64,000 nucleotides of DNA from an uncultured bacterium (GCA_950096895.1 CATNBF010000002.1:25086-89085); one strand, 5' to 3'; numbered from the stretch's first letter, positions 23,167 through 61,198 are shown. Notes: a model not told the origin generated them from the sequence alone. Numbers and translations: made by a program.

Positions 23167-23817
23167 ATGAAGACATTTGTAACGGTTTTGGCATTGACGG
23201 CAATTGCGCTGGGGGGATGTACAACAACCAATCCATATACGGGCCAGACCCAGACGTCCAAGGCTGTATGGGGCACCGCCATTGGCGCGGCAACCGGGGC
23301 GGCAACGGGGGCCTTGGTCGCGAAAAAAAGTGGCGCGGGCGCAATTGTTGGCGGTCTGGCCGGGGCGGCCATTGGTGGGGGTACGGGATATTATCTGGAC
23401 GTACAAGAGGCGGAATTACGTCAACAACTGGCATCGACCGGTGTTGGTGTCGAACGCACCGACGACAGCATTCGTTTAATCATGCCGGGCAATATTACGT
23501 TCAAAACAGATTCGGCCGATATCAATTCTAATTTTTATGCGGTTCTGAATTCCGTGGCCAAGGTTTTGAATAAATACAACAATTCAACCATTATGGTTCT
23601 TGGGTTTACCGATAACACGGGATCGGCGGATTATAACCAGACCCTGTCACGTCAACGGGCGAATGCGGTGGCGTCTTACCTGCAGGGCCAAGGGGTGAAA
23701 TCGTCACGCTTTGAAATTATGGCAATGGGGCCATCAAATCCGATTGCATCAAATGCAACTGCGGCGGGTCGGGCCCAAAATCGACGTGTCGAAATTAAAA
23801 TTATTCCCAATAAATAA
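23167..23817 (+). CDS. OmpA-family lipoprotein with glycine-zipper region
   Basis: Lipobox LALTAIALGGC. Gly-zipper GTAIGAATGAATGALVAKKSGAGAIVGGLAGAAIGGGTG. C-terminal OmpA-like peptidoglycan-binding domain (GFTDNTGSADYNQTLSRQRANAVASYL...NRRVEIKI). Confidence 0.85.
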   Translation: MKTFVTVLALTAIALGGCTTTNPYTGQTQTSKAVWGTAIGAATGAATGALVAKKSGAGAIVGGLAGAAIGGGTGYYLDVQEAELRQQLASTGVGVERTDDSIRLIMPGNITFKTDSADINSNFYAVLNSVAKVLNKYNNSTIMVLGFTDNTGSADYNQTLSRQRANAVASYLQGQGVKSSRFEIMAMGPSNPIASNATAAGRAQNRRVEIKIIPNK

Positions 23818-33986: not shown

Positions 33987-34631
33987 TTATTTCTTGATAA
34001 CGTCAATGCGGCCCCGGTTATATTGTGCGATAAAAACATCATCTGGATCTTTGATGCGTTTTTCCCGCAGCTTTTTCATCAACCATTTTTCTGTATGTTT
34101 AATCAATGCCAGATTTTCAATGACAATATTGCCATTATCAATCAAGATAATGGGATAGTCTTGGGTACGGCGGCGCGTAATGCTTAATGTGCCATTGGGT
34201 TCAATCTGGGCCAGTTTAACATCTTTGATAGAATGAATATTTTGATGGCGCATTGCGGCGGCGACATCGCGGGCATTAATGCGCATTTTCTTCATCATGG
34301 ACGCGTTAAATTCGCCGTTTTCAATAATGGTTTTTGGTGTGCCGACAAAAATGCGCCGGCCAATATTCGTTCGAAATGTTAATCGATTCAGAATATAAAG
34401 TAATGTCCCATAAATCACTACAATAATCAGATAGTCGATAACGGTTATCTTGTCATCCAAAATCATGTCAGACAAAATCGCCCCCAACAGAAAGTTCAAT
34501 ATGATATCCAACGGGGTCATTTGCTTTAATTGACTGGTGGCATTAAAGAATTGCAGAAAAAATGCCACAACCCCGATGGCCAAAATCAGCTTTATTGTCA
34601 CCAATCCATAAAGAAATAAAAAATTAAGCAT
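33987..34631 (-). CDS. DUF421 (YetF-like) membrane protein
   Basis: Three N-terminal TM helices and a YetF-type C-terminal domain (IIENGEFNASMMKKMRINARDVAAAMRHQNIHSIKDVKLAQIEPNGTLSI). Confidence 0.7.
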   Translation of the reverse strand: MLNFLFLYGLVTIKLILAIGVVAFFLQFFNATSQLKQMTPLDIILNFLLGAILSDMILDDKITVIDYLIIVVIYGTLLYILNRLTFRTNIGRRIFVGTPKTIIENGEFNASMMKKMRINARDVAAAMRHQNIHSIKDVKLAQIEPNGTLSITRRRTQDYPIILIDNGNIVIENLALIKHTEKWLMKKLREKRIKDPDDVFIAQYNRGRIDVIKK

Positions 34632-34741
34632 AGCAATAGCATATCATTGTTATCACGCCCCCGCCCAGCGGATACAATTCCCAAATCTTGGAAAATAATG
34701 CTGGTAATTTTCAAAAACATATATTATGATAGGGGCCGTTG

Positions 34742-34817
34742 GCCGGTGTAGCTCAGCTGGTAGAGCATCTCATTCGTAATGAGGGGGTCGTAGGTTCAAG
34801 TCCTATCACCGGCACCA
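34742..34817 (+). tRNA. tRNA-Thr (CGT)
   Basis: GCCGGTGTAGCTCAGCTGGTAGAGCATCTCATTCGTAATGAGGGGGTCGTAGGTTCAAGTCCTATCACCGGCACCA. The acceptor stem GCCGGTG/CACCGGC pairs, and the anticodon loop is TT-CGT-AA. Confidence 0.95.
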
Positions 34818-34827
34818 GAAATAGATA

Positions 34828-34856
34828 AAGGGGATTGTTCCCCTTGTTTTTTTATT
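34828..34856 (+). terminator. Intrinsic terminator after tRNA-Thr
   Basis: aagggga-ttgt-tcccctt followed by gttttttttattt. Confidence 0.7.
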
Positions 34857-34932
34857 TATTAAAAAATATTTGACATTTTATATTTTTTGTCTATTATATA
34901 TTGGAATTAAGTTCAATAAGAGGATTTTACAA

Positions 34933-35634
34933 ATGATCAAATTATCGGAATTGGTTCGGATAAATCATGGTGGAAAAATTATTCAGCATCAATTGGATGA
35001 GAATGGTTTTATTGTTCTCTATCGCATGATAGCAGAGCATATGCACACACCTGTTTATTATCCGGATGGACGTTTGGTTCCGAATACAGATTGTGATCCA
35101 TTTATTGATGACAAATTGAATCGCACCCGTGTGGGTGTGGTTGTTGATTCTGTATCTGGGCGGATTGTCCGTCGTGATGAATTCAGAAATGAGTTATATG
35201 ATGTCGCCTTTGGATCGGATTATATATTGGATATGCATGGCGGTATTTTGACTGATTTATCAAAACCGGCCCCAAAATATAATGATATTGCGTTGGTCCC
35301 AACGGTTCGCCGGCCAATCCCACGTCGTTTAGCAGATGTTGTGCCCAACGGATTATTGGCCAATAGAAGCGTTCAATTTGTTACGGATTATCAATTCTAT
35401 CAGGTTCCAACATCTGATATTGAAATCCGAGAACGTAACGGCGAATTAATGGAAATGGCCCAGGATAAAAATTTGGATTGTAATGATTATGAATTTTTAA
35501 CCAATTATGCCCATATAATCCAAGATGTCCATACGGCCTTGTTCCCCGAGAAAAATCTTTTTTCTCAGTATGCCCAGATTCGCAATATGTTATTAAAAAA
35601 TACATTAATGAAAAAAATGGGTTTGATGAAATGA
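34933..35634 (+). CDS. Hypothetical protein, tandem paralog 1
   Basis: ATG at 34933 preceded by AAGAGGA. Shares motifs with the next ORF (PVYYPDGRLVPNTD vs PLFYANGQMIKNTD; DMHGGILTD vs NLHGGTDAPD; FLTNYAHIIQDV vs NYLTQYVNQMRH). I recognise no family. Confidence 0.6.
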   Translation: MIKLSELVRINHGGKIIQHQLDENGFIVLYRMIAEHMHTPVYYPDGRLVPNTDCDPFIDDKLNRTRVGVVVDSVSGRIVRRDEFRNELYDVAFGSDYILDMHGGILTDLSKPAPKYNDIALVPTVRRPIPRRLADVVPNGLLANRSVQFVTDYQFYQVPTSDIEIRERNGELMEMAQDKNLDCNDYEFLTNYAHIIQDVHTALFPEKNLFSQYAQIRNMLLKNTLMKKMGLMK

Positions 35635-36317
35635 TCGACTTTGAAACATGGGTTCGATTGAATGAACGGCCAATATTTTCTATGCCGGTGATGGGAAATA
35701 CATATGGTATTTTCGGTTTGGATTATGGGGATATAAAACCGTTGTTCTATGCCAATGGTCAAATGATCAAGAATACCGATCGCCCAGAATATGCCGCGGC
35801 CGGTGTAATCCGTGTTGAAAATAATGCAATTTTGCATCGATTTGATGAAATCAATCGTCGCATGTGGCAGTTTTCAGACCTGGGGGGGATTATTCGGGGA
35901 AATTTGCATGGGGGAACAGACGCCCCGGATGGCTGGTTAAATATGCCGGTAATTCCACATATCCCAGGGCCAGAATCTGATCATGGGGATCAAGACAAGA
36001 TTGTATTTGATGACAAATCTATGCTTTATCGTGGGGTATATTGTGTGTCGGGGGCATCGGTGATGATTCATGCCTGGGATGGTGTGTTTCAGTTGCCATT
36101 GGCCCGCCATCAGATTCAATCACGGCATGCGGAATTAGAACTGTTTCTGATGGATAATCCGAAATTAAGTCTGCGCGGGTTTAATTATTTAACCCAATAC
36201 GTGAATCAAATGCGGCATTTAGAATATAGCGCAGGCCAGCGGCAAACACCCCTGGATCGATACGAGTCCCAGTTGCGTGCATTAAGTCGTTTGTTTTACG
36301 GCGGCATGGCCCGATAA
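35631..36317 (+). CDS. Hypothetical protein, tandem paralog 2
   Basis: ATGA overlap with the previous ORF and the shared motifs listed there. I recognise no family. Confidence 0.6.
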   Translation: MIDFETWVRLNERPIFSMPVMGNTYGIFGLDYGDIKPLFYANGQMIKNTDRPEYAAAGVIRVENNAILHRFDEINRRMWQFSDLGGIIRGNLHGGTDAPDGWLNMPVIPHIPGPESDHGDQDKIVFDDKSMLYRGVYCVSGASVMIHAWDGVFQLPLARHQIQSRHAELELFLMDNPKLSLRGFNYLTQYVNQMRHLEYSAGQRQTPLDRYESQLRALSRLFYGGMAR

Positions 36318-42065: not shown

Positions 42066-42530
42066 TTATTCCACCATAAATGAAATCATGTTATCACCCG
42101 ATGACATACAGAAATCAGGCATGCCGTCAGCATTACTGTATCCGTTAACGCGTAACCCTGATGCCCATGTGGGAATGGCGGTGGTAAAGTATGCACAATC
42201 GCCATAGGACAGTCCGGTTAAATTAATTGAAAACATCGTGCCATCATCAGATGCCGTAATGGACCAATCGTCCCCGCCGATGGGGGCGCGATCGTTGCGT
42301 AACGCCCCGGCCTTGACCAAATAATCAACCGATACGCCCGAATAATCCCCGCGCGGGGCCATCATCAGGCGGACATTTTTTGCCACCTGGTCCAGTTCGG
42401 CTGTCGCGATGGTACGCATGCTGCGGTCGCGCATGGTTTTATACATGCCAATGGCCCCAGCCGTCATAATGGCGGCAACGGCCAAGACACCAATAATCTC
42501 GATCAATGAACGTCCAGATTCTGTGCGCAT
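42066..42530 (-). CDS. Type IV pilin-like protein (prepilin-type N-terminus)
   Basis: MRTESG|RSLIEIIGVLAVAAIMTAGAIGMY: a 6-aa leader ending in Gly, Glu at +5 and a hydrophobic alpha-1 helix. 154 aa with a C-terminal Cys pair (..YGDCAYF...DFCMSS), like a pilin D-region. Confidence 0.65.
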   Translation of the reverse strand: MRTESGRSLIEIIGVLAVAAIMTAGAIGMYKTMRDRSMRTIATAELDQVAKNVRLMMAPRGDYSGVSVDYLVKAGALRNDRAPIGGDDWSITASDDGTMFSINLTGLSYGDCAYFTTAIPTWASGLRVNGYSNADGMPDFCMSSGDNMISFMVE

Positions 42531-44724: not shown

Positions 44725-46080
44725 GTGGCCCGGCAATCCGGAAATTTTTTATTACAAGCCTTGCTGGCGATATCTTTGATATTCGCGTTTATGCCCTTTG
44801 TTGCCCGCCAGGTGGCATCCCGTGACCAGGCATCGCAAATGTATGCTGTGACGCGCCAGATGGAAACGGCGGCGACTGCGGCCCGGATTTATATTCGGGA
44901 AAATGCGGGAAATTTACCATATGGTCAGACGGTGTTGGCGGGCAATGATTTTGCCGATACGTTGGAACCCTATGGCTTGCCATTGGGGTTTGTGGCGCGC
45001 ACTGCCCTGGGCCAGGATTTAATCCTGGTGATCAACAAGAATGCGACCGATGTCGGGGGGTATATTGATGCCATTGGCGGCGGGTTAAGTGGATTTCGCC
45101 GCGCAGAATTGGCCCGGCGGTTGGGCTTTTACGCGGCGGTTGTGGATGGGGGCGTCCGTTTGGGGATTGCGCTGGATGATGCCTATTCAGATATTGTTCG
45201 TCGCGATGATCAAGATCTGGACAATAATGCCTTTTTGATTGATTTGAATATGGCGGATTTTTCGGTGGCCAATGTGGGGGCGGTGTATGCCCATAATGGG
45301 GAATTTGAATCGTTCCAAGGGTCGACATTAAGTTTGAACGGTATTGAAAATGGCCGCAAGATTCGTCATAACATCACAACCATGACCGCCGACAAAACCG
45401 TGTTCCAGGCGGGTGATGGGGGGGCGGCACTGGCGGTGACGCGTGGGGGACTGGTGGCAGATTCACTATCGGTGCGTACAATTGCCAAGTTTGGTGATGC
45501 CGGGTCAATTACAACAGGGGCGGCGTCTGTGTATGATTTCTTTATGACGGCGGGCCGAACCAGTTTTACCGGTCCCAAAAAATGGGCGATTAATGGCAAT
45601 GTGGTTGCCGAAAATATGAATTTTACGGTCGATACGTTGGAAATATCTTCGTATCTAAATGCGTCCCGTGGTCAAGATGTTTACATTAATCCTGATAGCT
45701 TGGAATACAACACCCGCAGCGGGATCGAAGCAGATATTATTGCCGCGTCAAATATTACATTGCGTGATCAAACGTCTGATGAATTGATCAACGGCGGGGC
45801 GGGCGCGATTGTTTTGGATATTCGGCCGGCTGGGACATCGTTTTTGCCAGATGTCTTGGTTGATACGATTGACAACGGGGCCTTTCGCATTATTTCCCGC
45901 GCCGATGATAATGATGGGGCCACTGTTGATTGTCGGTCTATTATAACGGCACTGGATGGGGTTTATAATGCCAAGTCTTTGGCCCAATATATTGTGTGCC
46001 AATATGTTTATTGGTCACGTTTGGAAAAAAGAATTGATTTGAAACAATGTATGCTGGACGGAAAAAGTGATTGCAAGTAA
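44725..46080 (+). CDS. Large pilin-like protein 1 (prepilin-like N-terminus, Gln at +5)
   Basis: GTG start. MARQSG|NFLLQALLAISLIFAFMPF, then an amphipathic helix (TRQMETAATAARIYIRENAG). G/T/S/N-rich beta-strand-like C-terminal half with a C-terminal Cys cluster. Confidence 0.6.
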   Translation: MARQSGNFLLQALLAISLIFAFMPFVARQVASRDQASQMYAVTRQMETAATAARIYIRENAGNLPYGQTVLAGNDFADTLEPYGLPLGFVARTALGQDLILVINKNATDVGGYIDAIGGGLSGFRRAELARRLGFYAAVVDGGVRLGIALDDAYSDIVRRDDQDLDNNAFLIDLNMADFSVANVGAVYAHNGEFESFQGSTLSLNGIENGRKIRHNITTMTADKTVFQAGDGGAALAVTRGGLVADSLSVRTIAKFGDAGSITTGAASVYDFFMTAGRTSFTGPKKWAINGNVVAENMNFTVDTLEISSYLNASRGQDVYINPDSLEYNTRSGIEADIIAASNITLRDQTSDELINGGAGAIVLDIRPAGTSFLPDVLVDTIDNGAFRIISRADDNDGATVDCRSIITALDGVYNAKSLAQYIVCQYVYWSRLEKRIDLKQCMLDGKSDCK

Positions 46081-47281
46081 ACAGATCTTGGATGCCCAAC
46101 GCGGGGCGTCGATGATAGAAGTGCTGATGGTGATGGCAATTATTGCCATGATGACCCCGTTTGTTTATTCCCAAGTATCTGCCGCCGCCCAAGAGATTCA
46201 GGATATCGCCATGGCCCGTCGAATTGTGGCAACGCGTGATGGGGTGTTGAATTTTGTGCGTCGTAATCAAGATAATTGGGTCGGGGTTGATCAAATTAGG
46301 TTGGGGGATCAAGAGCTGGGCGAGCTGTCTGATTTGGCATCGGTTGGGTTTGTTGACAAGTATGACATGGGTGGGGTGGTAATGACCGATGTTTATTTGG
46401 GAATTGATCCAGATCGTGATGGATTGCGCGCGGCGCGCATTGCCCGTCATATTGGCGATGCGGCGGCGGTTGTGGCCGATGATGGGGTGGCCTATGGCGA
46501 TATGTGGGCGGTAACGGCCCCAGAATTTCGCCCAGGAATGGTTATTTATCGGGTTTCACGCAATGCGTCGGGTGATGATAAAACGCGCTATTTACATCGG
46601 GTATCGTCGGGTAACGATGATCTGAATACAATGATGCGTGATCTGAATATGGGCGGCCATGATTTATTTGATGTGGGAACCGTGATGGCGTCATCGGGAC
46701 GGATTGGGGATACGGCCGCCATGTTTATTGAATCTGATCTGGTGACGGCGTCAAATGCGTACTTTGTATCGGGGGCGAACATGGATGGGAACGCGGTATC
46801 GGTTGGTAATATGCGTGTGACCGGGGATGTGACCGGATTTCGCAGCATTACGGCCCAGAAACTAAACGGGGATAAATTCGGTACCGTTGGCCGGGTGATC
46901 ACAGATCGTGCGTCGATTACATCATCGGTTAATGTGTCACGTGATCTGACACTAAAAGCGGATACATCCCGCACCATCAGTGGGTTTTCCGGCATCCAGG
47001 CCGGTGTTGTTATGACGCCTTTTTTGGCGGTTGATGAAATGGTATTTTACGAGAATTTTGGATTAACTGTATCTGGGGAATTGTTAATGTCGACAAATCC
47101 GCCGATACGATTGGGGGCATGGTCATTTCCATCGGTGACGCCGCCCCGGTTTGTCGATTTGGCGGTGGCCCGCGCGCCCATGCCTGATATGCCTGATGCC
47201 GATGAATTTGGCGTGATTATGTCAGGGGGCTGGAAAGATGTTGCGGCGCAACCAATAACACCGGGGGGAAATTATGAATAA
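46067..47281 (+). CDS. Large pilin-like protein 2 (prepilin-type N-terminus)
   Basis: GTG start overlapping the previous gene by 14 nt. QRG|ASMIEVLMVMAIIAMMTPF has Glu at +5. Paralogy motif RYLHRVSSGNDDLNTMMRDLNMGGHDLFDVG. Confidence 0.6.
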   Translation: MIASKQILDAQRGASMIEVLMVMAIIAMMTPFVYSQVSAAAQEIQDIAMARRIVATRDGVLNFVRRNQDNWVGVDQIRLGDQELGELSDLASVGFVDKYDMGGVVMTDVYLGIDPDRDGLRAARIARHIGDAAAVVADDGVAYGDMWAVTAPEFRPGMVIYRVSRNASGDDKTRYLHRVSSGNDDLNTMMRDLNMGGHDLFDVGTVMASSGRIGDTAAMFIESDLVTASNAYFVSGANMDGNAVSVGNMRVTGDVTGFRSITAQKLNGDKFGTVGRVITDRASITSSVNVSRDLTLKADTSRTISGFSGIQAGVVMTPFLAVDEMVFYENFGLTVSGELLMSTNPPIRLGAWSFPSVTPPRFVDLAVARAPMPDMPDADEFGVIMSGGWKDVAAQPITPGGNYE

Positions 47282-48587
47282 AGATCTTTTGACCCGGGAC
47301 CACGCCCAACGTGGGGGGATGCTGGTTGAATTGATGATGAGTGTGGCCTTGGCAGCCTTGGTCATTCCGTTTATCTTTCGTTATCAACAGACAGCGGTTC
47401 GGCGCGCTGAAAATGTTGCCTTGGCCCGCCAGATTGAAACAATCCAAGGGGCACTGGAACGCTATATCATTGATAACCAGGCGGCATTATTGGCACCGGT
47501 CGGGAAAAACATTACGCGGGTTAAAATGGCGGATTTGGGGCCCTATGGCGTTTCGGATAATATACTGGCCCAATATGGGGATAAATATCAATTACGCGTC
47601 TTAAAGACCGCCGATCGGGGGGCGGATGCCACGCTGCAAGGGGTTATTGTCTATGATGCCCCGAACATATCCCCCGCCCGAACACGGGAAATTATTAACC
47701 TGGGGGGCGATAGCATGGGCTTTATCGACGACGCGCGGGCGTTCGGGGCATTTGGAACATGGCGTGTTGATGCAGTTGATTTGGGGGTTGGGTCATTAAA
47801 TGGGATTATTGAAACAACCATGCCGACCCGCGGTATGCCGCGATACCTGTGGCGGGTTCCGTCGGATACCAGTGATGATGCCACCATGATGTCGGGATTA
47901 AATCTGGGGGGGCATAATATATCTGATGCGCGATTTTTTGATGCGTCTGTGGGTCGATTTGATGCGTATTTACGGGCCGGGGTTATTTCGGCAAATAATG
48001 TGATGTTTCAAAATCGTACCACATTGGATCGGCATTATCAGACGCGCACCGCCACTGTGTCGGGGACATTATCATCTGATTCACGCAGTATGGATGTAAC
48101 GGGGACGTTGACACTGAATGATATGGGTAAATTTTCAAGCTTTGTAACCGAAGATCTGTGGGTGACGAATTTGACCTTAGGTGGGATTTCAATTGCCACG
48201 GATGCAGATCCGGCGGTGTTAAAGATTAATCAAAATCTGGATATGACCGGTGGACGCATTAATGCCTTGTATGCCAGTGTGGCATTCACCGGATCAATTA
48301 CCCCCCGTCTGGTGGTCAAGACACGTATCGAAGATTCCATTAACCCATCTTATTATTGGGATGTGGCATCGCGGACGGCGTTTTTATCAGATCTAACATT
48401 GGCCGAATTGACCCAGCGAATGGGGCCATTGGTTGCGGTTCGGGAAAAGCGCGGCGGCCCAGACGCGACATCAATCTTTGGGGCGGTGGCAACGAACAAG
48501 AATGCGACGGTATCAGATTATATGAATGCGATCAATGAAATTGCCCAACGGGTTCGGATCAAATATCGCCGGTTGAATTTACAATAA
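47274..48587 (+). CDS. Large pilin-like protein 3 (prepilin-type N-terminus)
   Basis: ATG preceded by GGGGGA, overlapping the previous gene by 8 nt. QRG|GMLVELMMSVALAALVIPF has Glu at +5. Paralogy motif RYLWRVPSDTSDDATMMSGLNLGGHNISD. Confidence 0.6.
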   Translation: MNKDLLTRDHAQRGGMLVELMMSVALAALVIPFIFRYQQTAVRRAENVALARQIETIQGALERYIIDNQAALLAPVGKNITRVKMADLGPYGVSDNILAQYGDKYQLRVLKTADRGADATLQGVIVYDAPNISPARTREIINLGGDSMGFIDDARAFGAFGTWRVDAVDLGVGSLNGIIETTMPTRGMPRYLWRVPSDTSDDATMMSGLNLGGHNISDARFFDASVGRFDAYLRAGVISANNVMFQNRTTLDRHYQTRTATVSGTLSSDSRSMDVTGTLTLNDMGKFSSFVTEDLWVTNLTLGGISIATDADPAVLKINQNLDMTGGRINALYASVAFTGSITPRLVVKTRIEDSINPSYYWDVASRTAFLSDLTLAELTQRMGPLVAVREKRGGPDATSIFGAVATNKNATVSDYMNAINEIAQRVRIKYRRLNLQ

Positions 48588-49112: not shown

Positions 49113-49577
49113 ATGGTGATACGGCAATTATTAATCGCGGTGTTCATGTGCCTGGCGGGGGCGGCGTGGGGGGCAGATGCCACCCCGGTTGTTCGGCGGG
49201 TTAGTCTGTTTTCCACCAGCACGGATTGGGCGGCGGTCACCGGATTACCGTGGGGGCAATATAGTGGCAAAATTATTGGGGATAAAAAGTTGACCACGCC
49301 AAACGGATTGATTCTTTATTATTTGGATGGCTTTCCCTGTTATGGCGAAGCCGATAGTGTTCGTTTATGGATTTCGCCCACCGGCAAGGTGGATGGCAAA
49401 TTGCGTTTGGTGTGCGTGCATGCCCCCACGGTGATTCAGTTTGCGTGGCGTAATGCCCCGGCCGATGCCGTGCAAAAGGCAACCACCGGGATCTTGGTTT
49501 GTCCGGTGACAGGTAACCGTGAATTGACGGTGGATCTGGGTAAATGCAGCCGGGGTAAAAATTGGGATAGTTATTAA
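49113..49577 (+). CDS. Secreted hypothetical protein
   Basis: Signal peptide MVIRQLLIAVFMCLAGAAWGADA. The start abuts the previous gene's stop. 4 Cys in the mature part. I recognise no family. Confidence 0.55.
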   Translation: MVIRQLLIAVFMCLAGAAWGADATPVVRRVSLFSTSTDWAAVTGLPWGQYSGKIIGDKKLTTPNGLILYYLDGFPCYGEADSVRLWISPTGKVDGKLRLVCVHAPTVIQFAWRNAPADAVQKATTGILVCPVTGNRELTVDLGKCSRGKNWDSY

Positions 49578-50547: not shown

Positions 50548-50671
50548 GGGCCTAATAGTCAAATGGGATTTTGGGAAAATCCGACCGATCAATTAGCCGC
50601 GATTACAATTATTTCCTTTATCAATCCGCTGCTTTGTGTTATAATAAAGCAATAAATCATGGAGTGAGTCG

Positions 50672-53600
50672 ATGTTTTTCATGCAAAAAGCAATTGGATT
50701 TATGGCGGTTATGACGGTTATCTCTGGGGGATATGCGGTGACCAGTGCGCGTCCCAGCGTGATGAAAAGTGCATCATCGCGGATGCCATCGCTGACCACG
50801 TCTGTGACCCGTGGGTCAACTATTACTGTGACGCCATCAATGCCGACAACAACCGACACGGAATGCATCGATGATTATTTATCTTGTTTGAATGACGGGG
50901 ATGTCTGTGGGTCTTCTTTTGAAGAATGCACAACGCGTGTTTTATTCCATGCCCAAATGCCTAAGTGTCTGAATGTGTTGAACCAATGTTCTGCCAATGC
51001 GATTAATCGGTTATATGGAACATCGGCCACAACCAGTCTGGGGGCAATTGCATCCAAGAATGAACATGGCGAAGTGGTTGATTACACCTATCCGACAGAT
51101 GGCAGTATGTTGGGCCAAATGATCACAGGCGCGGCCATTGCCAATATGTATAACACGCCTGATTGTGTCAAACGGTATACCGCCTGTGTGCGTAAAGAAA
51201 ATGTTTGTGGGACGGATTTCGAATTATGCACCACCACCAAGGAATTCAAAAAACAACGTGTTTATTGTGACAATGTGTTGGCCCGCTGCCAATCTGAGGG
51301 GGTTAAAGAACTGTTTGGATCAACGTCCAAGACCGCGACCCCCACAAGTGATAGTCGCATTGGTGAATTAATTGCCGATGGGGCGTCATTGGCCGCGATT
51401 AATGCGGTTTCGACATGTTACAAGGTGATTGATCAATGTATCTTGAATACATGCCGCAACAATCCGTTCAAATGTATTGCGGGTACATCACGTGTCGCGG
51501 TGGATGCCGCCACGGATTCTGCCAATGGGACCAATACAGTATTGGGCCAAGATGCTCTGGCGGTGTTGTCGCAATCAGATGTTGATCGTTTTATCAAAGA
51601 TGCCTGTTATGAAACGGTAGCGACAAACAAATATTGTCATATGACGTTCTTGACCGATGGCCAGGCCCCCAGCAATGCGCAATTAAAAGATGAAATGAAC
51701 CAAGAAGATGTTTATAACGATGCGTATTCGACACGGATGTCTTCGGCTATTAAGACTAAACTGGATGTCATGGCCCAGGATTTCGACACCAATGCCAAGG
51801 ATATGTGTTCACAAACCATCCAAAACTGTGCCATGCAGTATTGTGCCGGCGGCAGTGGGGTTGCCTGTTATTCAAAGGTGTTCGGCCAGAACAGTGCCAG
51901 CAAGACAGTCAATAGCTCATCAACCTATGAAGAAATTAAAAGGGGATGTGAAGCGGTTGTAAATACAGATGCAAATTGTATCTATGCGGCAAACAGCCCC
52001 CGGACAGTTTGGAACAATAATTCTTATACCTATATCCAAGATGGGGTATTTAGCACGTTGTTCCCCAAGGCAACCAACGGGACATCTGGTGCCGGAACCG
52101 AAGGGGATCCCATCGGGGCCGTGGCGTCATTAAATGCCAGATTGACATCAACATACAATGCCGCAGGTATAGAGAGATTGCGCCGTTCATGTCTGAGTGT
52201 GGCGGACAGTTGCGTGCGGACCTTGTGTGGGGCCGATTTTGAGAACTGTTATCGTAACCGCACAGATGTATATTCTGATTTGACCAGTTCGGGAGATGAG
52301 ACCTTTAATAAATCTATGAACAAAGTTGGTGGTGTTTTAGATTACACGGTTGTTTTGGGATTGTGCCTGAATACGGTCAAAAATACATCTTCGTGTGAAG
52401 AACATTTGAAAATCACGACAGAGCAGTTAAAAGATAATGAAACAAATGCTTCCTGGGGGACGGCAGGTTCGGTGCGTGATGGTTGGATCGATGCCGGTGC
52501 AGCGTCCAAGATGGCGGTAAATAAAGAAACAGTTAATGCCGTTGATGAATATGGCAATGACTTGTGTACGAACAAGGCCGGCGAACAAGGTGTGTGTAAT
52601 ACAATGTCGCCAGATGGTTCTGTCTATGACACCAATGTCCAGATCTCTTATACGAATTATCTTCAGAGCAAGGCAGCGTCTGAGTTATTCAAGGAATTGA
52701 TCTTTGATTTAGAAAAAGAAGCCCAGGCAAAATATAATTCCAAATTAACCAAAGAACAAAATGCCTGTTTGGCGGCGAACCAAGGGGGCTTGATGGGCAA
52801 CCGCGATAACGGCAGTACGTATTTGTGGGCAAAATTAAAGAGCAATAAAACACCCAAAGATTATTCGATCAAGGGTCTGACGGAAAAGCAGTTTACCACC
52901 AGTAACGATCTTTATGGATCATTCTGTCGGGTGCGGGTCAATCTGGTATCTGATGATAAACAGATCCAAGATGCGATCTTAAAGGGTAAAGATTGGGCAA
53001 CCGCATACTTTGCTGTGGGTGATACCTTTGCCTGTGGCAGCTGGATCCCCGCCGATGATCTGGAAGAAATTGCCAACAACGTCGCGGCCAGTGCGACCGA
53101 AGACATGGCAGATCGTCAAAAACGTGCACGCACATGGGCGACGGTTTTGGGATCGCTGGGCGGTGGTGTCGGTGGTGCGTTCTTGGGTGATGGAATCCAA
53201 AAAGGCAATATCTTGGGGGGCTTAACCGGTAACAAGGGTCAAAAGACCACAGATGTTGAAATGGTAAAAAATCGCTGTGAATTATATGTAAATAATGCAG
53301 TAGACCAATTGGACGCCATTGTGATAGAGACCGGCCAAGATATGTCTGGTAATGAACAAAATGCAAAGTTGGTCAAAGAGTTTGCAGAAAGTGCCATTAA
53401 AGCGGCCAAGGAACTGGGGCTGGATGCAGATGCGAAAGTAGTTTCAAATAACTTAAACGTACTTGCTGATGCCGTCAAAGTAAAGGAAGGCAACAGTGAA
53501 GGCAATGGGTTGCAATCTAACAATGGTGATAACCGTTTGGCTGCTGTGAAAACGAGTGTTCGTGGATCGTTAGAGAAATTAGGGGAAGGATGTAAAGCAG

Positions 53601-53860
53601 CAGATAGCTTTAAGAATGGCGAACAGGCAAAAAATAAAAATGGTTGGATTGGGCCGGTTGTTGGATCGACGGTGACAGCTGTGGTGGGCGGACTGGCGAT
53701 TAACAAGGCGACCAAGGCCATTCAGGATAGTAAGCTGAGCAAGGAACAACAGCAAGCCTATGACCAGTTTATGGAATCTGTGGGTAAGCATATCCATTGT
53801 TATATCGGCCCAGACGAGGCAGGTGACTATGGCGACGTGGTCAGCGTAACCTTGGATTAA
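50672..53860 (+). CDS. Large secreted cysteine-rich protein (1062 aa) with repeated Cys modules and C-terminal Gly-zipper segments
   Basis: GGAG Shine-Dalgarno 7 nt upstream. Signal peptide (AIGFMAVMTVISGGYAVTSA). Two 52-aa modules exactly 100 aa apart with identical Cys spacing, plus further C-x6-C-x4-C modules. Gly-rich hydrophobic segments near the C-terminus (WATVLGSLGGGVGGAFLGDG; GWIGPVVGSTVTAVVGGLAI). Confidence 0.7.
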   Translation: MFFMQKAIGFMAVMTVISGGYAVTSARPSVMKSASSRMPSLTTSVTRGSTITVTPSMPTTTDTECIDDYLSCLNDGDVCGSSFEECTTRVLFHAQMPKCLNVLNQCSANAINRLYGTSATTSLGAIASKNEHGEVVDYTYPTDGSMLGQMITGAAIANMYNTPDCVKRYTACVRKENVCGTDFELCTTTKEFKKQRVYCDNVLARCQSEGVKELFGSTSKTATPTSDSRIGELIADGASLAAINAVSTCYKVIDQCILNTCRNNPFKCIAGTSRVAVDAATDSANGTNTVLGQDALAVLSQSDVDRFIKDACYETVATNKYCHMTFLTDGQAPSNAQLKDEMNQEDVYNDAYSTRMSSAIKTKLDVMAQDFDTNAKDMCSQTIQNCAMQYCAGGSGVACYSKVFGQNSASKTVNSSSTYEEIKRGCEAVVNTDANCIYAANSPRTVWNNNSYTYIQDGVFSTLFPKATNGTSGAGTEGDPIGAVASLNARLTSTYNAAGIERLRRSCLSVADSCVRTLCGADFENCYRNRTDVYSDLTSSGDETFNKSMNKVGGVLDYTVVLGLCLNTVKNTSSCEEHLKITTEQLKDNETNASWGTAGSVRDGWIDAGAASKMAVNKETVNAVDEYGNDLCTNKAGEQGVCNTMSPDGSVYDTNVQISYTNYLQSKAASELFKELIFDLEKEAQAKYNSKLTKEQNACLAANQGGLMGNRDNGSTYLWAKLKSNKTPKDYSIKGLTEKQFTTSNDLYGSFCRVRVNLVSDDKQIQDAILKGKDWATAYFAVGDTFACGSWIPADDLEEIANNVAASATEDMADRQKRARTWATVLGSLGGGVGGAFLGDGIQKGNILGGLTGNKGQKTTDVEMVKNRCELYVNNAVDQLDAIVIETGQDMSGNEQNAKLVKEFAESAIKAAKELGLDADAKVVSNNLNVLADAVKVKEGNSEGNGLQSNNGDNRLAAVKTSVRGSLEKLGEGCKAADSFKNGEQAKNKNGWIGPVVGSTVTAVVGGLAINKATKAIQDSKLSKEQQQAYDQFMESVGKHIHCYIGPDEAGDYGDVVSVTLD

Positions 53861-53865
53861 TCCAT

Positions 53866-53895
53866 TAAAATCCCGCCCCGGCGGGATTTTAATTT
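53866..53895 (+). terminator. Intrinsic terminator after the 1062-aa gene
   Basis: atcccgc-cccg-gcgggat followed by tttaattt. Confidence 0.65.
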
Positions 53896-54300
53896 GTTCA
53901 TTGAATCGGGGGCGATTTGTAACATATATCCGCGTCTGGTGTATGGCGTGGGGAATAAAAACGCATGGGGAAAAATGGCGGAAAAAACATTTGAAGATTG
54001 GGGTTAAGAAGCTATTTTTCAGGAAATAGTGTATCATATTGGCATAATGCGTATTTTGACACGCCCCAATCACAGATTGGGATCGATGTTTTTACATGAC
54101 GCCATGGTCCGGGTGTGTCCAACCTGAAAAAAGGCCCTTCTTAAAAGCCATGCCGCGTTTGCCGGGCACGGAATAAATTCTATCATTTTATGTGGAATAT
54201 TTTCAATGAGTATTTTTTTATCGCGCTATCTTTAGGATGGGGGTTATTTTTATCTTTGCCCTGGGTAAAAATTATGATAAAATTAATCACAAGAGAGAAT

Positions 54301-55959
54301 ATGAAACATCTAACAAGATTTTTGGTTTTTGCGTTATTCCTGGTTCCGGGGGTGGATGTGCATGCCACGGTGGCAACCACATCAGGGTCTAATTTAACGG
54401 CATATAACCCGAATATGGGGGCCATTAATAATAACAATTGGAATAATGCGTTGAATCCGCGAACGCCGGGCGGGGCGACGGGAAATGCATCGGCGAATTT
54501 TGGAAATTGTAATTCGGTGATCTTGCGCTGTGCCCAGCCAAAGTGTGCCACCGGCGGATGTGTATCGATGGATGTGGCAACCCCGATTGTGGCGGGGTGT
54601 GTTCAATCTAATGATGCGTGCAAGCAATATGGGGATGATCTGATTCAATCGATTGCGGCCCAATTGGTGGCCAGTTCGACGGCCAAGGCAAACCAGGCGG
54701 CAATGAACGCCCAGGCATCCGCGGCCCAGGCCGCCGCCGCCCAGTCGCAGCAGCAGTTACAACAGATGCAGGCCCAGATGCAGCAGATGCAATCCCAGAT
54801 GGCCCAACAGAATGCGGCCGCCACCCAACAATTACAGGCGGCAATCGAAGAACAGAAAAAAATTACGGCCCAGGCGGTTGCAGACGCCACCGCGGCCCAG
54901 GCCGCCGCAAATAATAGCGGGTTAAGCAATGCGCAGCTGGATGCGGCATCGAATGGGATATCGGCCGATGTCTTGGCCCGGCAACAAATTTCTGGGCAAA
55001 TCATGGACAAGGTTGATGGGGCCATGGTGGCCATGAAATCGTTAAAGGCGACGATGGAAAATGCGTTTGCCTATGCCGGATGTGATCGCAATGGGGACAA
55101 TTGTACGGGCCCCAAACGGGTCAAGATGTTCAAGGACAAGGCGGCAGATTTCTTTGATCCATATGAAAATGTCCTGGACGAGATTTATGATGCCTTGGTG
55201 ATGGCGCAATCACTGGGGGTGGATATTACCGATATTTACATGATGTTAAACGGGACATGTAATGCATGGGCCCAGTATTTATGTGCCGACGGCCAGGTGA
55301 TGCATTATACCAATCTGAATTGCGTTAACGGTCAATCGGAACCGGTCGGTGGCGTTACCAAAGCGGGTGTTTCATGTACCGTTGGCCAGGTGGTGCCCAT
55401 GTCGAATGGGGGATGCCAGCTGATTAAAATGTTGGCCAATGATGCAGAGGTGCAGCAGAACTGGCTTTATCCCGAAAGCGGGGATAACGGGGCCCAGGTA
55501 CGTGTTGGTTGTGCATCCGAAGCGTTAGAGAATTCGGTTCTGTTTCGTAACCGTAGCAAGCAGGCATCCATTGATATCGATGTCTTGCGCCGCATCATAG
55601 AGCAAGATGCCCCCAACATCGGGGTCAGTGCGTTTGGCAACAATACGCGGTCGGTTATTCCTGATGCGGTTAAATACTGTGCGGTTAATGCCGATACATA
55701 TGAAACATTGCAACAGGCGGCGTTGATGAAAAAGCTGCCAGAAAAAGTATGTGTGTCTGGAAATGCGTTAACACGTGATTTTGTGTCCAGTGCGCCGGTC
55801 GCCACGCAAGATTATGGGGCCCAGCTGGCGGCGGTGTTTGAATGTGAAGATTGGGCCAAGGGCCGCTATGTCAATGGGCGATGCATGTGCGGGGATCAGG
55901 TGATGGATCCTGATAAATCATACTGTGACGTGAATGGGTTTAACTATACGATAAAATGA
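54301..55959 (+). CDS. Secreted cysteine-rich protein with central Gln/Ala-rich coiled-coil (552 aa)
   Basis: Start taken at MKHLTRFLVFALFLVPGVDVHA (signal peptide). Contains a C-x6-C-x4-C-x4-C module (CNSVILRCAQPKCATGGC), a Q/A-rich repeat (QQLQQMQAQMQQMQSQMAQQ) and a Cys-rich C-terminal half. Confidence 0.65.
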   Translation: MKHLTRFLVFALFLVPGVDVHATVATTSGSNLTAYNPNMGAINNNNWNNALNPRTPGGATGNASANFGNCNSVILRCAQPKCATGGCVSMDVATPIVAGCVQSNDACKQYGDDLIQSIAAQLVASSTAKANQAAMNAQASAAQAAAAQSQQQLQQMQAQMQQMQSQMAQQNAAATQQLQAAIEEQKKITAQAVADATAAQAAANNSGLSNAQLDAASNGISADVLARQQISGQIMDKVDGAMVAMKSLKATMENAFAYAGCDRNGDNCTGPKRVKMFKDKAADFFDPYENVLDEIYDALVMAQSLGVDITDIYMMLNGTCNAWAQYLCADGQVMHYTNLNCVNGQSEPVGGVTKAGVSCTVGQVVPMSNGGCQLIKMLANDAEVQQNWLYPESGDNGAQVRVGCASEALENSVLFRNRSKQASIDIDVLRRIIEQDAPNIGVSAFGNNTRSVIPDAVKYCAVNADTYETLQQAALMKKLPEKVCVSGNALTRDFVSSAPVATQDYGAQLAAVFECEDWAKGRYVNGRCMCGDQVMDPDKSYCDVNGFNYTIK

Positions 55960-56705
55960 AACAGACAAAACGCGTTTTTATTGGTTTAATTGCTGCATTG
56001 GGGATGACGCCGATGTTGGGTTATGCGGCCGTTGATAATGGATGCGGGGTTGATGCCAACGATCATATTGCGGCGGAATTGGCCCTGTGTACAACGCATG
56101 CGTATAATATTGGTTTTGACATGAATCCTGGTACAGAATCAGAACGGCAATTAATGCGCGAAGTCATTGCCGCCAAGACCACAGTTATCACGCAACAGAT
56201 GTATAAACAGTATGAATATCTGGATGCAACGATTCGGCGTTTGAAAACCCAATTGGAAAAAGCGATTTTGACCACATCATTACAGGCGGCCGGTGCATCA
56301 GAAAGTCCCACAGGAACCATCGGGGCCGGTGTACGGGGCAATGACCGCAATGTTATTTTATCGGGGGCGGAAAACTGTTTGTTGAAATCGACGCCGTCTG
56401 ATGGATTAACATGTATCCAGAATAATATACGTATTGTTTTGAATGCGGTTGCGGCCGGTAATATTGGTGATGCCAAGCGGCAATTGGGCAAAGATCTGGA
56501 ATTTTCGCGCCAGTATGGGGTTATCGGGGGCAATACGGGCAAATATACCCTGGGGGCAACCGGGGCGACGTTTGATGATTGTAATCGGATGACGAACAGC
56601 CGTAATTCTGTTAATGATTGTGCCTATTCTTTGAATGTTCAGGTGATGAACAAAATCGATGAACGCAACCGGGAAAATCAGATGCAAAATAATCGATTTA
56701 TGTAA
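55956..56705 (+). CDS. Secreted hypothetical protein (249 aa), co-operonic with the Cys-rich proteins
   Basis: ATGA overlap with the previous gene. Signal peptide (VFIGLIAALGMTPMLGYA). 6 Cys arranged in pairs. Confidence 0.6.
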   Translation: MKQTKRVFIGLIAALGMTPMLGYAAVDNGCGVDANDHIAAELALCTTHAYNIGFDMNPGTESERQLMREVIAAKTTVITQQMYKQYEYLDATIRRLKTQLEKAILTTSLQAAGASESPTGTIGAGVRGNDRNVILSGAENCLLKSTPSDGLTCIQNNIRIVLNAVAAGNIGDAKRQLGKDLEFSRQYGVIGGNTGKYTLGATGATFDDCNRMTNSRNSVNDCAYSLNVQVMNKIDERNRENQMQNNRFM

Positions 56706-57706
56706 TCTGATTGGGATTTTATCTTGCTATATTTCTTTTTGTAAAAAATCATGGAATTCCGTGGGGCATGGATGGGTAGCGGCAATGTCCAAATTCATCA
56801 TCGAATTTTGATATTGGGGGTAATGTTTGACGGATCAATCGTGGGGGGGAATGGACACCGCCGATGGATCTGGAAATATGATGGCCGAAATCATAAACCC
56901 GGGGCGCAGAATTTTGAATGGATGATCTGGGCCCGATTCGCATCTGACCCAAACGGCAAGCGTGAATAATCCATGTATCTAAATCGGTTCTATTATTCGA
57001 TCCATGCGTCATAGTGCGACATTTTTTTGGATGCGGTGCCTGGGGGGGATAACACAACATGTCTGGGCCAGGCGAAATTAACACATACGAATTATTTGAC
57101 CCATCGAATGGGGAATTTTAGTTTATGATGGTGGCCCCGGTATCAATTATATTATTGTAAATATCATGGATCTGGTTTCGCCGCATCTTTTTTTTTAGGA
57201 GCAGAAAAAGCAAATAGATGTTCATGGCGCGCGGCCCCAGGGGCGGAAACATTCTATGGCCTGTGTTCTTTCCAGAACCATCAATGAAAACATAAATAAT
57301 GATGATGCGGCAAATATTGCATTGGGTGTATCTGGGGGGCTGGGCGGTATTCTATACATATCAATAGTGATAATGTGATGATTTAATATATTTGATGGGT
57401 ATTGTTGGGGATGTCTGATGGAAAATACCGGGGAATGTGAAAAGATCGGATATATCCCCATGGGAATGATGGGTCGGGCATAGGTACTTGGACCGTACCG
57501 GGGGACTTTTGTGATCATCAAGCACTTATTTATTGTTTGGGGTCGATAAAACCCAATCTTGTATGATTACAACATATGCCTTAGCCGATGATATTTGGAA
57601 AATTCGCCCCGCGGGGCGTCATGGGGTTTTTATGTCGGCGTTATTATTTATGGTCGTGGGGGGGAATGTGCCTTTGGGCCCGATCCGAATCGTTTTACGA
57701 TAACAA

Positions 57707-57733
57707 GAAACCGCCCATTTGGGCGGTTATTTG
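57707..57733 (-). terminator. Intrinsic terminator of the 57736-59022 gene
   Basis: aaccgccc-attt-gggcggtt. On the minus strand it is followed by tttcttgtt. Confidence 0.6.
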
Positions 57734-57735
57734 AT

Positions 57736-59022
57736 TTAAGGGCACAGGGCCAATTGATTTAACACATTTTGGATGTCCGTATTCACTGAAACAGTGATTT
57801 CTCGCTGTAGCCCATCGGTATAGGTGTACCAAAAGCGTGCCTGCTTAAATTCTGGGGCCGCGTCATAGGCCGCCTGGAACGGGGCCAGCATAGCATAAAA
57901 CCATTCACGATTTCGACACAGACACCCATTGCGGACGTCTGCGGCCACGGCCGCCGTGGCCGTATTGGGGTATTTTTCATCAAATTCTTTGTCTGTGGTC
58001 ATCAAGCACCGTGCCCCCAGATTATAGAAATTTGCATCATCGGCCATAAATTTATAGATCAGGCCGTTCGATGCCCCTGCCTGGCGCAGGGCATGGACCA
58101 TCCCATCGGTACAGCATGCGCGCGCATTATCCATTAACATTCGATAGCGGGATATTAATGGGGCCGCCAAGGGGTCATTACCTTTGATCTTGGGATCACA
58201 CAGGGCCGCATCAATAAACGCACCCATTTTATCATCGCGGATACGCGGACTGCGTGGGGAAACGCTTTCGCGGATCATGGGTTTACGCCGCCAAATGGCA
58301 CATTCGGCGTCTGTATCAAATGGGCATCCATCGTCAAACAGAACCGGTACCGGTTGAATAACCGTGGCAACCGCCGGACGCGGGGCCTTGGGTTGTGGAA
58401 CTGGCTTTTTTGCACATGGGTCACATGGGGCCGGTTGCGGGGCGGGCGTCGGCGATTCGCAATCGTTGCTTGTCGTTGTGTCCGTATCATCATCCCCCAG
58501 CCACAGGTTTTCCGACGGCCGATTGGGGGTCAACAGATTTTCAACCGCGTCGCGTGTGACAAAATCAGCCTGGTCAGAATAATAATAGATATCCATTGGG
58601 GAATACCAATCACTAAAATCCCGATCACGATAATGCGCCACCCCTTCATCCCAGATGGGTGCGCCATCGCGCCAATCAACGGTCTTGTCAAACTTTCGCG
58701 GGATGAAAGTCGCCTGGGTTCCATCCCAGGGCGCAGCCGCCACATTATTATGGTCAACCGGAACCAATGCGATTGGCCGTGGCATAACCGGCATCTGTAT
58801 CGCATAGGGTACAGCGTTAGTTATGACGGCATCATACTGATCAAACGATAGATCATTATAAGACGGTTCGCCCAAGGGTGTCGGTTCACCGATCATAACC
58901 TTGGGTTCATATTCAAATACGCATCCGTCACCAATGCATTCAGATGCGTGCCCACCAAACGCCCCGCATATACATACCAAGGCGGAAAATATAGCTGTTC
59001 TTGATTTCATAATACGAATCAT
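57736..59022 (-). CDS. Secreted Cys- and Pro-rich hypothetical protein (428 aa)
   Basis: Signal peptide (AIFSALVCICGAFGGHA), a Pro-rich linker (PTPAPQPAPCDPCAKKPVPQPKAPRPA) and about 20 Cys. I recognise no family. Confidence 0.65.
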   Translation of the reverse strand: MIRIMKSRTAIFSALVCICGAFGGHASECIGDGCVFEYEPKVMIGEPTPLGEPSYNDLSFDQYDAVITNAVPYAIQMPVMPRPIALVPVDHNNVAAAPWDGTQATFIPRKFDKTVDWRDGAPIWDEGVAHYRDRDFSDWYSPMDIYYYSDQADFVTRDAVENLLTPNRPSENLWLGDDDTDTTTSNDCESPTPAPQPAPCDPCAKKPVPQPKAPRPAVATVIQPVPVLFDDGCPFDTDAECAIWRRKPMIRESVSPRSPRIRDDKMGAFIDAALCDPKIKGNDPLAAPLISRYRMLMDNARACCTDGMVHALRQAGASNGLIYKFMADDANFYNLGARCLMTTDKEFDEKYPNTATAAVAADVRNGCLCRNREWFYAMLAPFQAAYDAAPEFKQARFWYTYTDGLQREITVSVNTDIQNVLNQLALCP

Positions 59023-59065
59023 ATCATAAAATCATTCAACATAAAAACAGAAATTTGTGATTTTT

Positions 59066-59202
59066 GGGGCTGGGATCGTCTTTTTTGTCGATAAAATCCG
59101 ATTCGATTCGGGTAAATTTGGTTTTTTATGGGGGAATTTTAGAAAACAGAATCGGTTTTTATGGCCTTTCGAATCGGATTTTAGATATTTTTGCCCAGCC
59201 CC
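59066..59202. repeat. Nested long inverted repeat in the divergent region upstream of the rRNA operon
   Basis: ggggctggg (59066-74) pairs with cccagcccc (59194-202). aaaatccgattcga (59093-106) pairs with tcgaatcggatttt (59169-82). A third gaatcgg+T-run copy lies at about 59149-59160. Confidence 0.6.
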
Positions 59203-59312
59203 AGGAAATAATGTTAAAAAAAATTTTAGACGAAAAATCCCAGAAATCCGGGATTTTTCCTGTTGACTTTTGGGAAAATGAAATTTTTTTGAAATTATTT
59301 TTGAAAAACCGC

Positions 59313-59341
59313 TTGACTTTTTGCGAAATAAAACACATACT
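59313..59341 (+). promoter_or_regulatory. Candidate rRNA operon promoter
   Basis: TTGACT (59313-18), a 17-nt spacer, then CATACT (59336-41), preceded by an A/T-rich UP-like stretch. A second TTGACTTTT copy lies 50 bp upstream at 59263. Confidence 0.4.
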
Positions 59342-59697
59342 GTGCGAGCTTTCAAGTTGGGAACGAAAAAAGAAAAAGAACTCAACCCCTGAAATTCTGC
59401 GGTTTACGGGATGACCAGAATAGGGTACCTGATAAATACGCAAACATTGTGAATAAAAGCAGCTCATCAAGATTTTTGATGCAAATCAAGAATCTGTTCA
59501 AGAAGGGATGTGCAGACAGTTGAATTTGGAACAATCCAAACTTTGACTAAGTCAAATGTGCATATCCTAGACAGGTAGTAGGTTTACATATTAAACCTCG
59601 TTAAAAACTTGTCTTGCGAATAAATATATGTAAAGACGAACTGATTATTATGTCAGTGTTGTTTTATGCACAGGGCTTAAACACCAAGTTTTTTTAG

Positions 59698-61198
<1,501 letters not shown>

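Follow-up and report, generated by a model that had tools for sequence, protein, structure and literature searches.

A locus of four genes, here called A to D, occupies positions 50672-59022 of a 64,000-nt stretch of bacterial DNA (GCA_950096895.1 CATNBF010000002.1:25086-89085; hereafter the window, in which all positions are counted). The source of the window is Candidatus Enterousia, a lineage of the Alphaproteobacteria in the order Rs-D84. Gene A (50672-53860, + strand) encodes a protein of 1062 amino acids (aa), B (54301-55959, +) and C (55956-56705, +) encode proteins of 552 and 249 aa, and D (57736-59022, - strand) encodes one of 428 aa. All four are very probably exported, disulfide-stabilised core proteins specific to this lineage. 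The best explanation of their sequences, to which we give slightly less than even weight, is that A, the B-C pair and D are Sec-exported, disulfide-rich proteins of the envelope or surface, core to their order (Rs-D84 / Candidatus Enterousia) and specific to it, with a structural or adhesive function; that function, taken by itself, is a tentative assignment. The four proteins represent new protein families in a familiar general category.

Cysteine accounts for 0.85% of the residues encoded by the 48 other open reading frames (ORFs) of the window, which served as the baseline for binomial tests. Compared with this value, A (38 Cys, 3.6%, P = 4e-13), B (20 Cys, 3.6%, P = 1e-7) and D (16 Cys, 3.7%, P = 1e-6) are enriched 4.2- to 4.4-fold and C (6 Cys, 2.4%, P = 0.02) is enriched 2.8-fold, in agreement with the unusual cysteine richness reported in a preliminary description of the locus. 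Other envelope proteins of the window, such as the TolC-like, OmpA-family and Skp proteins, are Cys-poor. Signal peptides had also been proposed for all four ORFs, and inspection of the n-region, the hydrophobic core and the small-x-small site supports them: in each of the four, a single hydrophobic 19-mer lies at the N-terminus ahead of a small-x-small site, and the orthologue alignments of A, B, C and D retain the pattern. The open frame of B extends back to 54190, and the starts of its orthologues match the MK at 54301; in most orthologues of D, the second Met (MKSR) is the start.

The behaviour of these residues among homologues argues for disulfide partners, mostly in the form of internal staples. 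The mature part of B contains between 16 and 30 Cys, and this number is even in 117 of 119 homologues; after clustering at 80% identity, 38 of 39 clusters contain even counts only. Cys residues of B are therefore gained and lost in pairs. Across 55 homologues of A, all Cys as far as residue 788 are invariant; the ectodomain holds exactly 35 Cys in 117 of 118 homologues, and the C-terminal tail holds exactly one (Cys1043) in all 118. Protein C has six conserved Cys (30, 45, 141, 153, 209 and 222), and six are present in 12 of its 16 orthologues. Thus, B, A and C behave as expected of disulfide-bonded proteins, while D gives a mixed result. An i, i+7 spacing on predicted helices predominates; it places both Cys on the same side of a helix, where they are too far apart for chelation of a single metal ion. 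A-D contain no conserved CxxC-type metal motifs, and the only close spacings are Cys-x-Cys pairs at residues 367/369 of D and 528/530 of B. In the two N-terminal modules of A, M1 and M2, the outer and inner residue numbers give equal sums (65 + 106 = 72 + 99 in M1; 165 + 206 = 172 + 199 in M2). Since these sums are equal, two staples across an antiparallel helical hairpin would be expected in each module, a pairing based on the spacing and the predicted model.

The label 'orphan' used in the preliminary description does not hold, as A, B, C and D all have many homologues. Homologue clusters number at least 750 for A, at least 1301 for B and 504 for D, all of them unnamed or annotated as 'hypothetical', and exact copies of A are found in two metagenome-assembled genomes (MAGs) at NCBI. 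In a scan of one genome per GTDB species, relatives of A were encoded in 198 stretches, and the best 80 of these, ~20 kb each and numbered with the prefix L, were used for the locus comparisons. The MAGs behind these best 80 bear the names Candidatus Enterousia, Alphaproteobacteria bacterium or uncultured Rickettsiales, a few being called 'proteobacterium' or probably mislabelled; they were sampled from the guts of humans, chickens, ruminants, mice and other hosts. With D as the query, an exhaustive profile search matched only 122 representatives among 1.84 billion proteins. The unit common to the relatives of D is the C-terminal domain (profile positions 230-429 are shared with distant relatives); the most distant matches contain no Pfam domain, and the named ones originate from 'Rickettsiales bacterium' MAGs. 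Because of the results of the A species scan and the exhaustive D search, the A-D families are regarded as confined to one lineage and as core genes within that lineage. The suggested lineage specificity is therefore upheld: homologues with a named source belong to uncultured gut Alphaproteobacteria or 'Rickettsiales' MAGs, or to likely mis-binned records. Two clear Enterousia-type loci, L007 (CAVGNU010000002.1) and P0070, are labelled Bacteroides fragilis and Muribaculaceae bacterium; these records are probably mis-binned or mislabelled MAG contigs. The proteins are under constraint, with full-length homologues and a column conservation of 0.8-0.9 over most of A and over the C-terminal domain of D.

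Enterousia genomes in the order Rs-D84 are mostly smaller than 1 Mb and lack the tricarboxylic acid cycle, respiratory chains and standard transporters; their dependence on partner organisms is a proposal only (PMC12306168). Termites, among them flagellate-free higher termites, harbour the lineage as well (PMC11257099), for which neither intracellular life nor a developmental cycle is known (PMC12306168, PMC11257099).

Protein A is modular and mostly helical, and its Cys are spaced with marked regularity. Its signal peptide (~aa 1-26; 50672-50749, +) is followed by a conserved TARPSV...RMPTMT motif and a Thr/Ser-rich linker that extends to ~aa 62. The tandem six-Cys modules M1 and M2 (Cys65-106 and Cys165-206; 50858-51316, +) have the spacing C-x6-C-x6-C-x6-C-x12-C-x6-C, and all twelve of their Cys are invariant in 55 homologues. 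Because the two modules share 36% identity over 59 aa (pairwise E = 4e-16), an internal duplication is clear from their alignment. Three further helical modules (Cys249-322, Cys379-436 and Cys507-575; 51356-52441, +) follow the pattern C-x6-C-x4-C-x6/7-C and then C-x9-C, and are mutually weakly similar (pairwise E of 1e-3 to 3e-2). They precede a beta-rich region with a long helix (aa 617-800; 52520-53071, +), which contains Cys632, 642, 699, 752 and 788. The ectodomain would thereby form a bead-like long chain of five disulfide-stapled helical modules and then a beta-rich domain. In the AlphaFold2 model of A, for which 55 sequences were used, helices predominate; beta structure is predicted at ~617-660 and 717-790 and a helical bundle at 860-976, and the predicted local distance difference test score (pLDDT) is below 50 for aa 1-60.

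The C-terminal part of A begins with a glycine-zipper-like segment (aa 818-853; 53123-53230, +) of consensus WxTxLGxLGGxVGGAYLGxGIQxGxxFGGLTG. It is followed by a hypervariable helical bundle (aa 860-985; 53249-53626, +), where column conservation falls to 0.11-0.44 compared with ~0.8-0.9 elsewhere, and by a second Gly/Ala/Val-rich segment (aa 990-1012) with a conserved 50-aa tail containing the invariant Cys1043 (53639-53857, +). The Gly-zipper-like hydrophobic segments described earlier are thus present, at aa 822-853 and 990-1012; they are conserved and moderately hydrophobic (mean Kyte-Doolittle value of 1.0-1.2), and probably attach the protein to the membrane. In one possible topology, the two Gly-rich segments would cross the membrane, the variable bundle would be cytoplasmic, and the tail would pair with the odd Cys of the ectodomain. 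This arrangement would fit the data because the ectodomain and tail hold 35 + 1 Cys and the variable stretch from Cys788 to the tail, which contains the bundle, holds 0, 1, 2, 4 or 8 Cys without parity. The N-terminal ARPS motif of A was also considered as a sorting signal common to many proteins, an idea that found no support: apart from A, one other signal-peptide protein carries it (L038:17244-18122), and two more matches look spurious.

Protein B (54301-55959, +) consists of a signal peptide (aa 1-22), a head (Cys70-107) with the spacing C-x6-C-x4-C-x4-C-x12-C-x6-C, a Gln/Ala-rich heptad stalk (~aa 110-250), a conserved domain with Cys at ~aa 255-490 and a variable Cys-rich tail. The Gln/Ala-rich stretch keeps a sustained heptad phase and differs in length among species, and the tail is hypervariable inside a conserved frame, similar to aa 860-985 of A. 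The ATGA overlap noted earlier between the second and third genes, B and C, is present; in four other species (L007, L009, L027 and L029), the two are fused into a continuous ORF that spans 722-856 aa. Judged from this gene structure, the fused ORF and the overlap show B and C to act as one functional unit. Such a unit would comprise a conserved Cys-rich head, a variable-length coiled-coil stalk, a conserved domain and a variable Cys-rich tail.

Protein D (57736-59022, -) combines its signal peptide with an SEC-x-G-x-GC motif, a Trp/Asp-rich segment (aa 96-142), a Pro-rich linker (~aa 186-227), as had been described, and a C-terminal domain (aa 228-428; 57739-58341, -). This domain is mostly alpha-helical with a small beta hairpin, rich in Cys, and the conserved unit of the family. 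In the AlphaFold2 model, aa 23-230 are disordered and aa 261-428 are compact (pLDDT of ~80-97). The conserved Trp/Asp-rich segment lies in the region predicted to be disordered, which suggests that it is a docking segment. A Foldseek search with the model found no neighbour in the PDB (best E = 0.35) or BFVD (best E = 0.05), and the predicted structure probably contains a new fold. The usual Cys count in D homologues is odd, which may leave one residue unpaired or engaged in an intermolecular bond; CC and CLC motifs, with vicinal Cys, are conserved. Altogether, D would carry its compact domain, Cys-rich and alpha-helical, on a long, flexible tether rich in Pro, with a free Cys available for an intermolecular bond.

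As the preliminary description had stated, none of the four proteins belongs to a recognisable family. Searches of A-D against Pfam and NCBIfam returned sub-threshold matches only, the strongest being TFIIA on the Gln/Ala-rich stretch of B, a low-complexity artefact. PHROGs gave a weak tail-fibre match on the coiled coil of B and nothing else, and PDB sequence-profile searches of A, B and D with alignments of 46-55 sequences gave nothing meaningful. When the model of A was compared with the PDB using Foldseek, only generic four-helix bundles were obtained (best E = 0.024). Hence, neither the sensitive profile searches nor structure prediction (for A and D) matched a characterised family or fold, and no enzyme or other family was matched by A-D in Pfam, NCBIfam, PHROGs, PDB profiles or Foldseek. 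Nothing relevant emerged when the literature was searched for similar Cys-rich proteins in episymbionts. The motif C-x6-C-x4-C was correctly said to occur in both A and B: A contains three copies, beginning at Cys249, Cys379 and Cys507, and B contains one, beginning at Cys70. Homology of A and B through this shared spacing was rejected (hhalign probability of 2.5%), as was homology of A and C (0.4%), and the common motif is best read as a pattern, not as evidence of common descent.

The structural or adhesive reading is based on the export signals, the predicted disulfides, the stalk of B and tether of D, the variable patches in conserved frames, the missing catalytic signature and the retention of the genes in a small genome. 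According to this reading, A-D would be envelope parts of a partner- or host-dependent cell, not enzymes. Two further points favour it: the window itself encodes a diderm envelope, with TolC-like, BamB-like, Skp and OmpA proteins, and in other species the locus has gained a BspA-type leucine-rich-repeat protein.

Several observations weigh against the reading of A-D as disulfide-rich envelope or surface proteins. About one third of the A homologues have an odd total Cys count, and the counts of D are odd or mixed, the commonest being 11 (57 of 114 homologues). The model of A is of modest confidence (pLDDT of 63.9 and predicted template modelling score of 0.39). Its Gly-rich segments are only moderately hydrophobic with uninformative flanking charges, which weakens the case for membrane anchoring. 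In addition, because respiratory chains are reported missing in this lineage (PMC12306168), the usual DsbB-quinone route of disulfide formation may be missing as well, and no thioredoxin or Dsb-like gene was found among the scanned ORFs of the 64-kb window. Together, A-D contain more than 70 Cys that would have to be oxidised in a lineage reported to lack respiration.

The preliminary description had likened the locus to the chlamydial OmcA/OmcB system. A lattice of this type would consist of abundant periplasmic or outer-membrane proteins linked by intermolecular disulfides, which would confer rigidity and perhaps define a resistant or transmissible stage. Like OmcB and OmcA, A-D are Sec-exported, Cys-rich and lineage-restricted proteins encoded side by side in a bacterium with a reduced genome that is probably host- or partner-dependent, and either the usual odd count of D or the 35 Cys of the A ectodomain could leave a free Cys for cross-linking. 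Gene A also looks like a separate (monocistronic) transcription unit because of a promoter-like site (50618-50645, +; TTATCA-16 nt-TATAAT with an extended TG, a consensus match only), a GGAG ribosome-binding site seven bases 5' of its ATG, and a terminator-like hairpin with a 13-bp stem directly 3' of its stop codon (53864-53893, +); the good promoter-like site, the ribosome-binding site and the strong terminator would suit a lattice protein. However, A-D have no sequence or profile similarity to OmcA/OmcB and no match at E <= 1 to the Chlamydia cysteine-rich outer-membrane protein families of Pfam and NCBIfam. They are mainly alpha-helical, and the near-perfect even parity of B together with the local i, i+7 spacing points mainly to intramolecular staples. 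Furthermore, C lacks an OmcA-type lipobox, the OmpA-family peptidoglycan-binding proteins encoded in the window make a normal wall likely, and Enterousia has no known developmental cycle. The chlamydial comparison goes no further than analogy, and a lattice of this type is unlikely. The parts of the earlier interpretation that stand are lineage specificity, export and the behaviour of the Cys as disulfide partners; orphan status does not, and the suggested envelope, adhesin or infectious-stage role remains an inference.

Another explanation is that A-D are secreted effectors or toxins directed at partner or host cells, released possibly by a type II or type IV-pilus-like system related to the nearby pilin-like genes, in which case disulfides would guard them against gut proteases. 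It draws on the neighbourhood of A. Upstream of A lie RluD, a small secreted protein, a Zn-ribbon/DUF3426 protein and three large proteins of 400-450 aa (44725-48587), which, like a small protein at 42066-42530 (-), have prepilin-like N-termini of the G|xxxxE type with borderline scores to TIGR02532/PF07963. The block of three pilin-like genes, the Zn-ribbon protein, the small secreted protein, RluD and A is kept in ~65 of the 80 loci, and the C-terminal regions of both B and A are variable, as might be found in effectors. Nevertheless, the housekeeping gene rluD is part of this synteny, which may simply be a sign of infrequent rearrangement inside a single genus; the prepilin cleavage/methylation motif is absent from A-D, which have ordinary signal peptides. 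There is no match to a toxin, enzyme or defence-related family, the conserved hydrophobic C-terminal segments of A suggest retention, and the cores are highly conserved and single-copy, while typical effectors are polymorphic. A role as secreted effectors thus appears improbable compared with that of envelope components.

It is very unlikely that the Cys of A-D are kept reduced to bind Zn, Fe or Fe-S or to buffer redox stress. The anoxic gut habitat of the lineage and its reported lack of respiratory chains (PMC12306168), as well as the vicinal CC and CLC motifs of D, would be in line with such a function, but no CxxC or CxxH occurs at conserved positions of A-D, save the Cys-x-Cys pairs. The paired gain and loss of Cys in B, the export of all four proteins and the absence of metal-binding families from the search results likewise oppose it. 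Finally, chance ORFs or decaying pseudogenes, an alternative favoured by nothing beyond the missing annotation, are practically dismissed, since dozens to hundreds of species retain the proteins at full length, with their Cys and motifs invariant.

Other known systems resemble individual proteins of the locus in part. Sel1-like-repeat (SLR) Cys-rich proteins, such as Helicobacter Hcp and Legionella EnhC, are exported and built from repeated alpha-helical units pinned by disulfides, and EnhC is a very large periplasmic protein. A shares with them the exported, repeated and disulfide-pinned helical units. In contrast, its module lengths and Cys spacings are different, Sel1 and tetratricopeptide repeat (TPR) profiles gave no match in A-D although the same tool found TPR proteins elsewhere in the window, and no SLR structure was matched by the A model in the Foldseek search of the PDB. 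The CHCH/twin-Cx9C proteins of the mitochondrial intermembrane space carry Cys pairs on antiparallel helices, as proposed here for M1 and M2 of A; however, the spacing in A is x6 and not x9 or x3, the protein is bacterial and exported, and no CHCH profile was matched. The GxxxG-rich segments near the C-terminus of A are reminiscent of Gly-zipper proteins (Gly-zipper_Omp/YMGG, SlyB-like), but they fail the Pfam Gly-zipper models (no match at E <= 1) and A lacks a lipobox. The same search found this family at 23167-23817 in the window, in a true Gly-zipper OmpA-family lipoprotein.

Across the compared loci, the adjacency of B and C is constant and their distance downstream of A varies; D is often near in either orientation, and the rRNA operon commonly comes next. 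In several species, a ~590-aa protein is encoded on the opposite strand between A and B-C (L009:13147-14904, L006:13144-14952 and L072:13152-14927). The copy in L009 matches the BspA-type leucine-rich-repeat family, an assignment that covers this copy only; the window has no such insert. Upstream of RluD, a conserved gene at 49113-49577 encodes a 154-aa signal-peptide protein with four Cys in the mature part and no family match, which may be a further member of the exported Cys-containing set.

A bidirectional terminator-like hairpin lies just 3' of the D stop codon (57709-57728). The ~1 kb between the stop codon of C and this terminator (56706-57708) contains no conserved ORF and is not conserved among other Enterousia species; tblastx and blastn against the 80 related loci revealed no conserved coding remnant. 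The gap contains exact direct repeats of 15 nt (at 56839 and 57654) and direct repeats of 17 nt (at 56928 and 57675), without an Rfam match, and may be a decayed insertion. An Rfam scan of 53850-59700 returned a single weak match to RsmY, which coincides with the terminator hairpin of A. The rRNA operon is located 3' of the locus (16S at 59697-61198, tRNA-Ile, 23S from 61645). Upstream of the 16S gene, spurious minus-strand ORFs occur at 59030-59470; the 'KVKRFFKNNFKK' peptide that they encode is found again in other species, an indication that this DNA is no gene but a conserved rRNA leader or promoter. Elsewhere in the window, a 236-aa ORF (22293-23003) with 11 Cys (4.7%) has neither a signal peptide nor a Pfam match. 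A low-GC patch (34001-36317; 0.40 compared with ~0.49) beside tRNA-Thr (34742-34817) contains two ORFs without a Pfam match (34933-35634 and 35631-36317), and may be an acquired island.

Rs-D84/Enterousia is a widespread uncultured gut lineage of humans, livestock, birds and termites. Protein A, with its 36 nearly invariant Cys, has been kept in cells that discarded much of their central metabolism, and is likely central to the build of the cell or to partner contact. In a bolder form, which we consider rather unlikely, A-D would constitute an undescribed order-specific surface apparatus of new disulfide-stapled folds, used for attachment to or exchange with a partner by an ultra-small, respiration-less cell. 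If true, such an apparatus would point to an unconventional, quinone-independent disulfide route in an anaerobe, because many disulfides must form without a respiratory chain. The four proteins are candidate surface markers for antibodies, cell sorting and imaging. They also offer possibly new folds for structural study, and a case in which to examine how disulfides form in a bacterium reported to lack respiratory chains.

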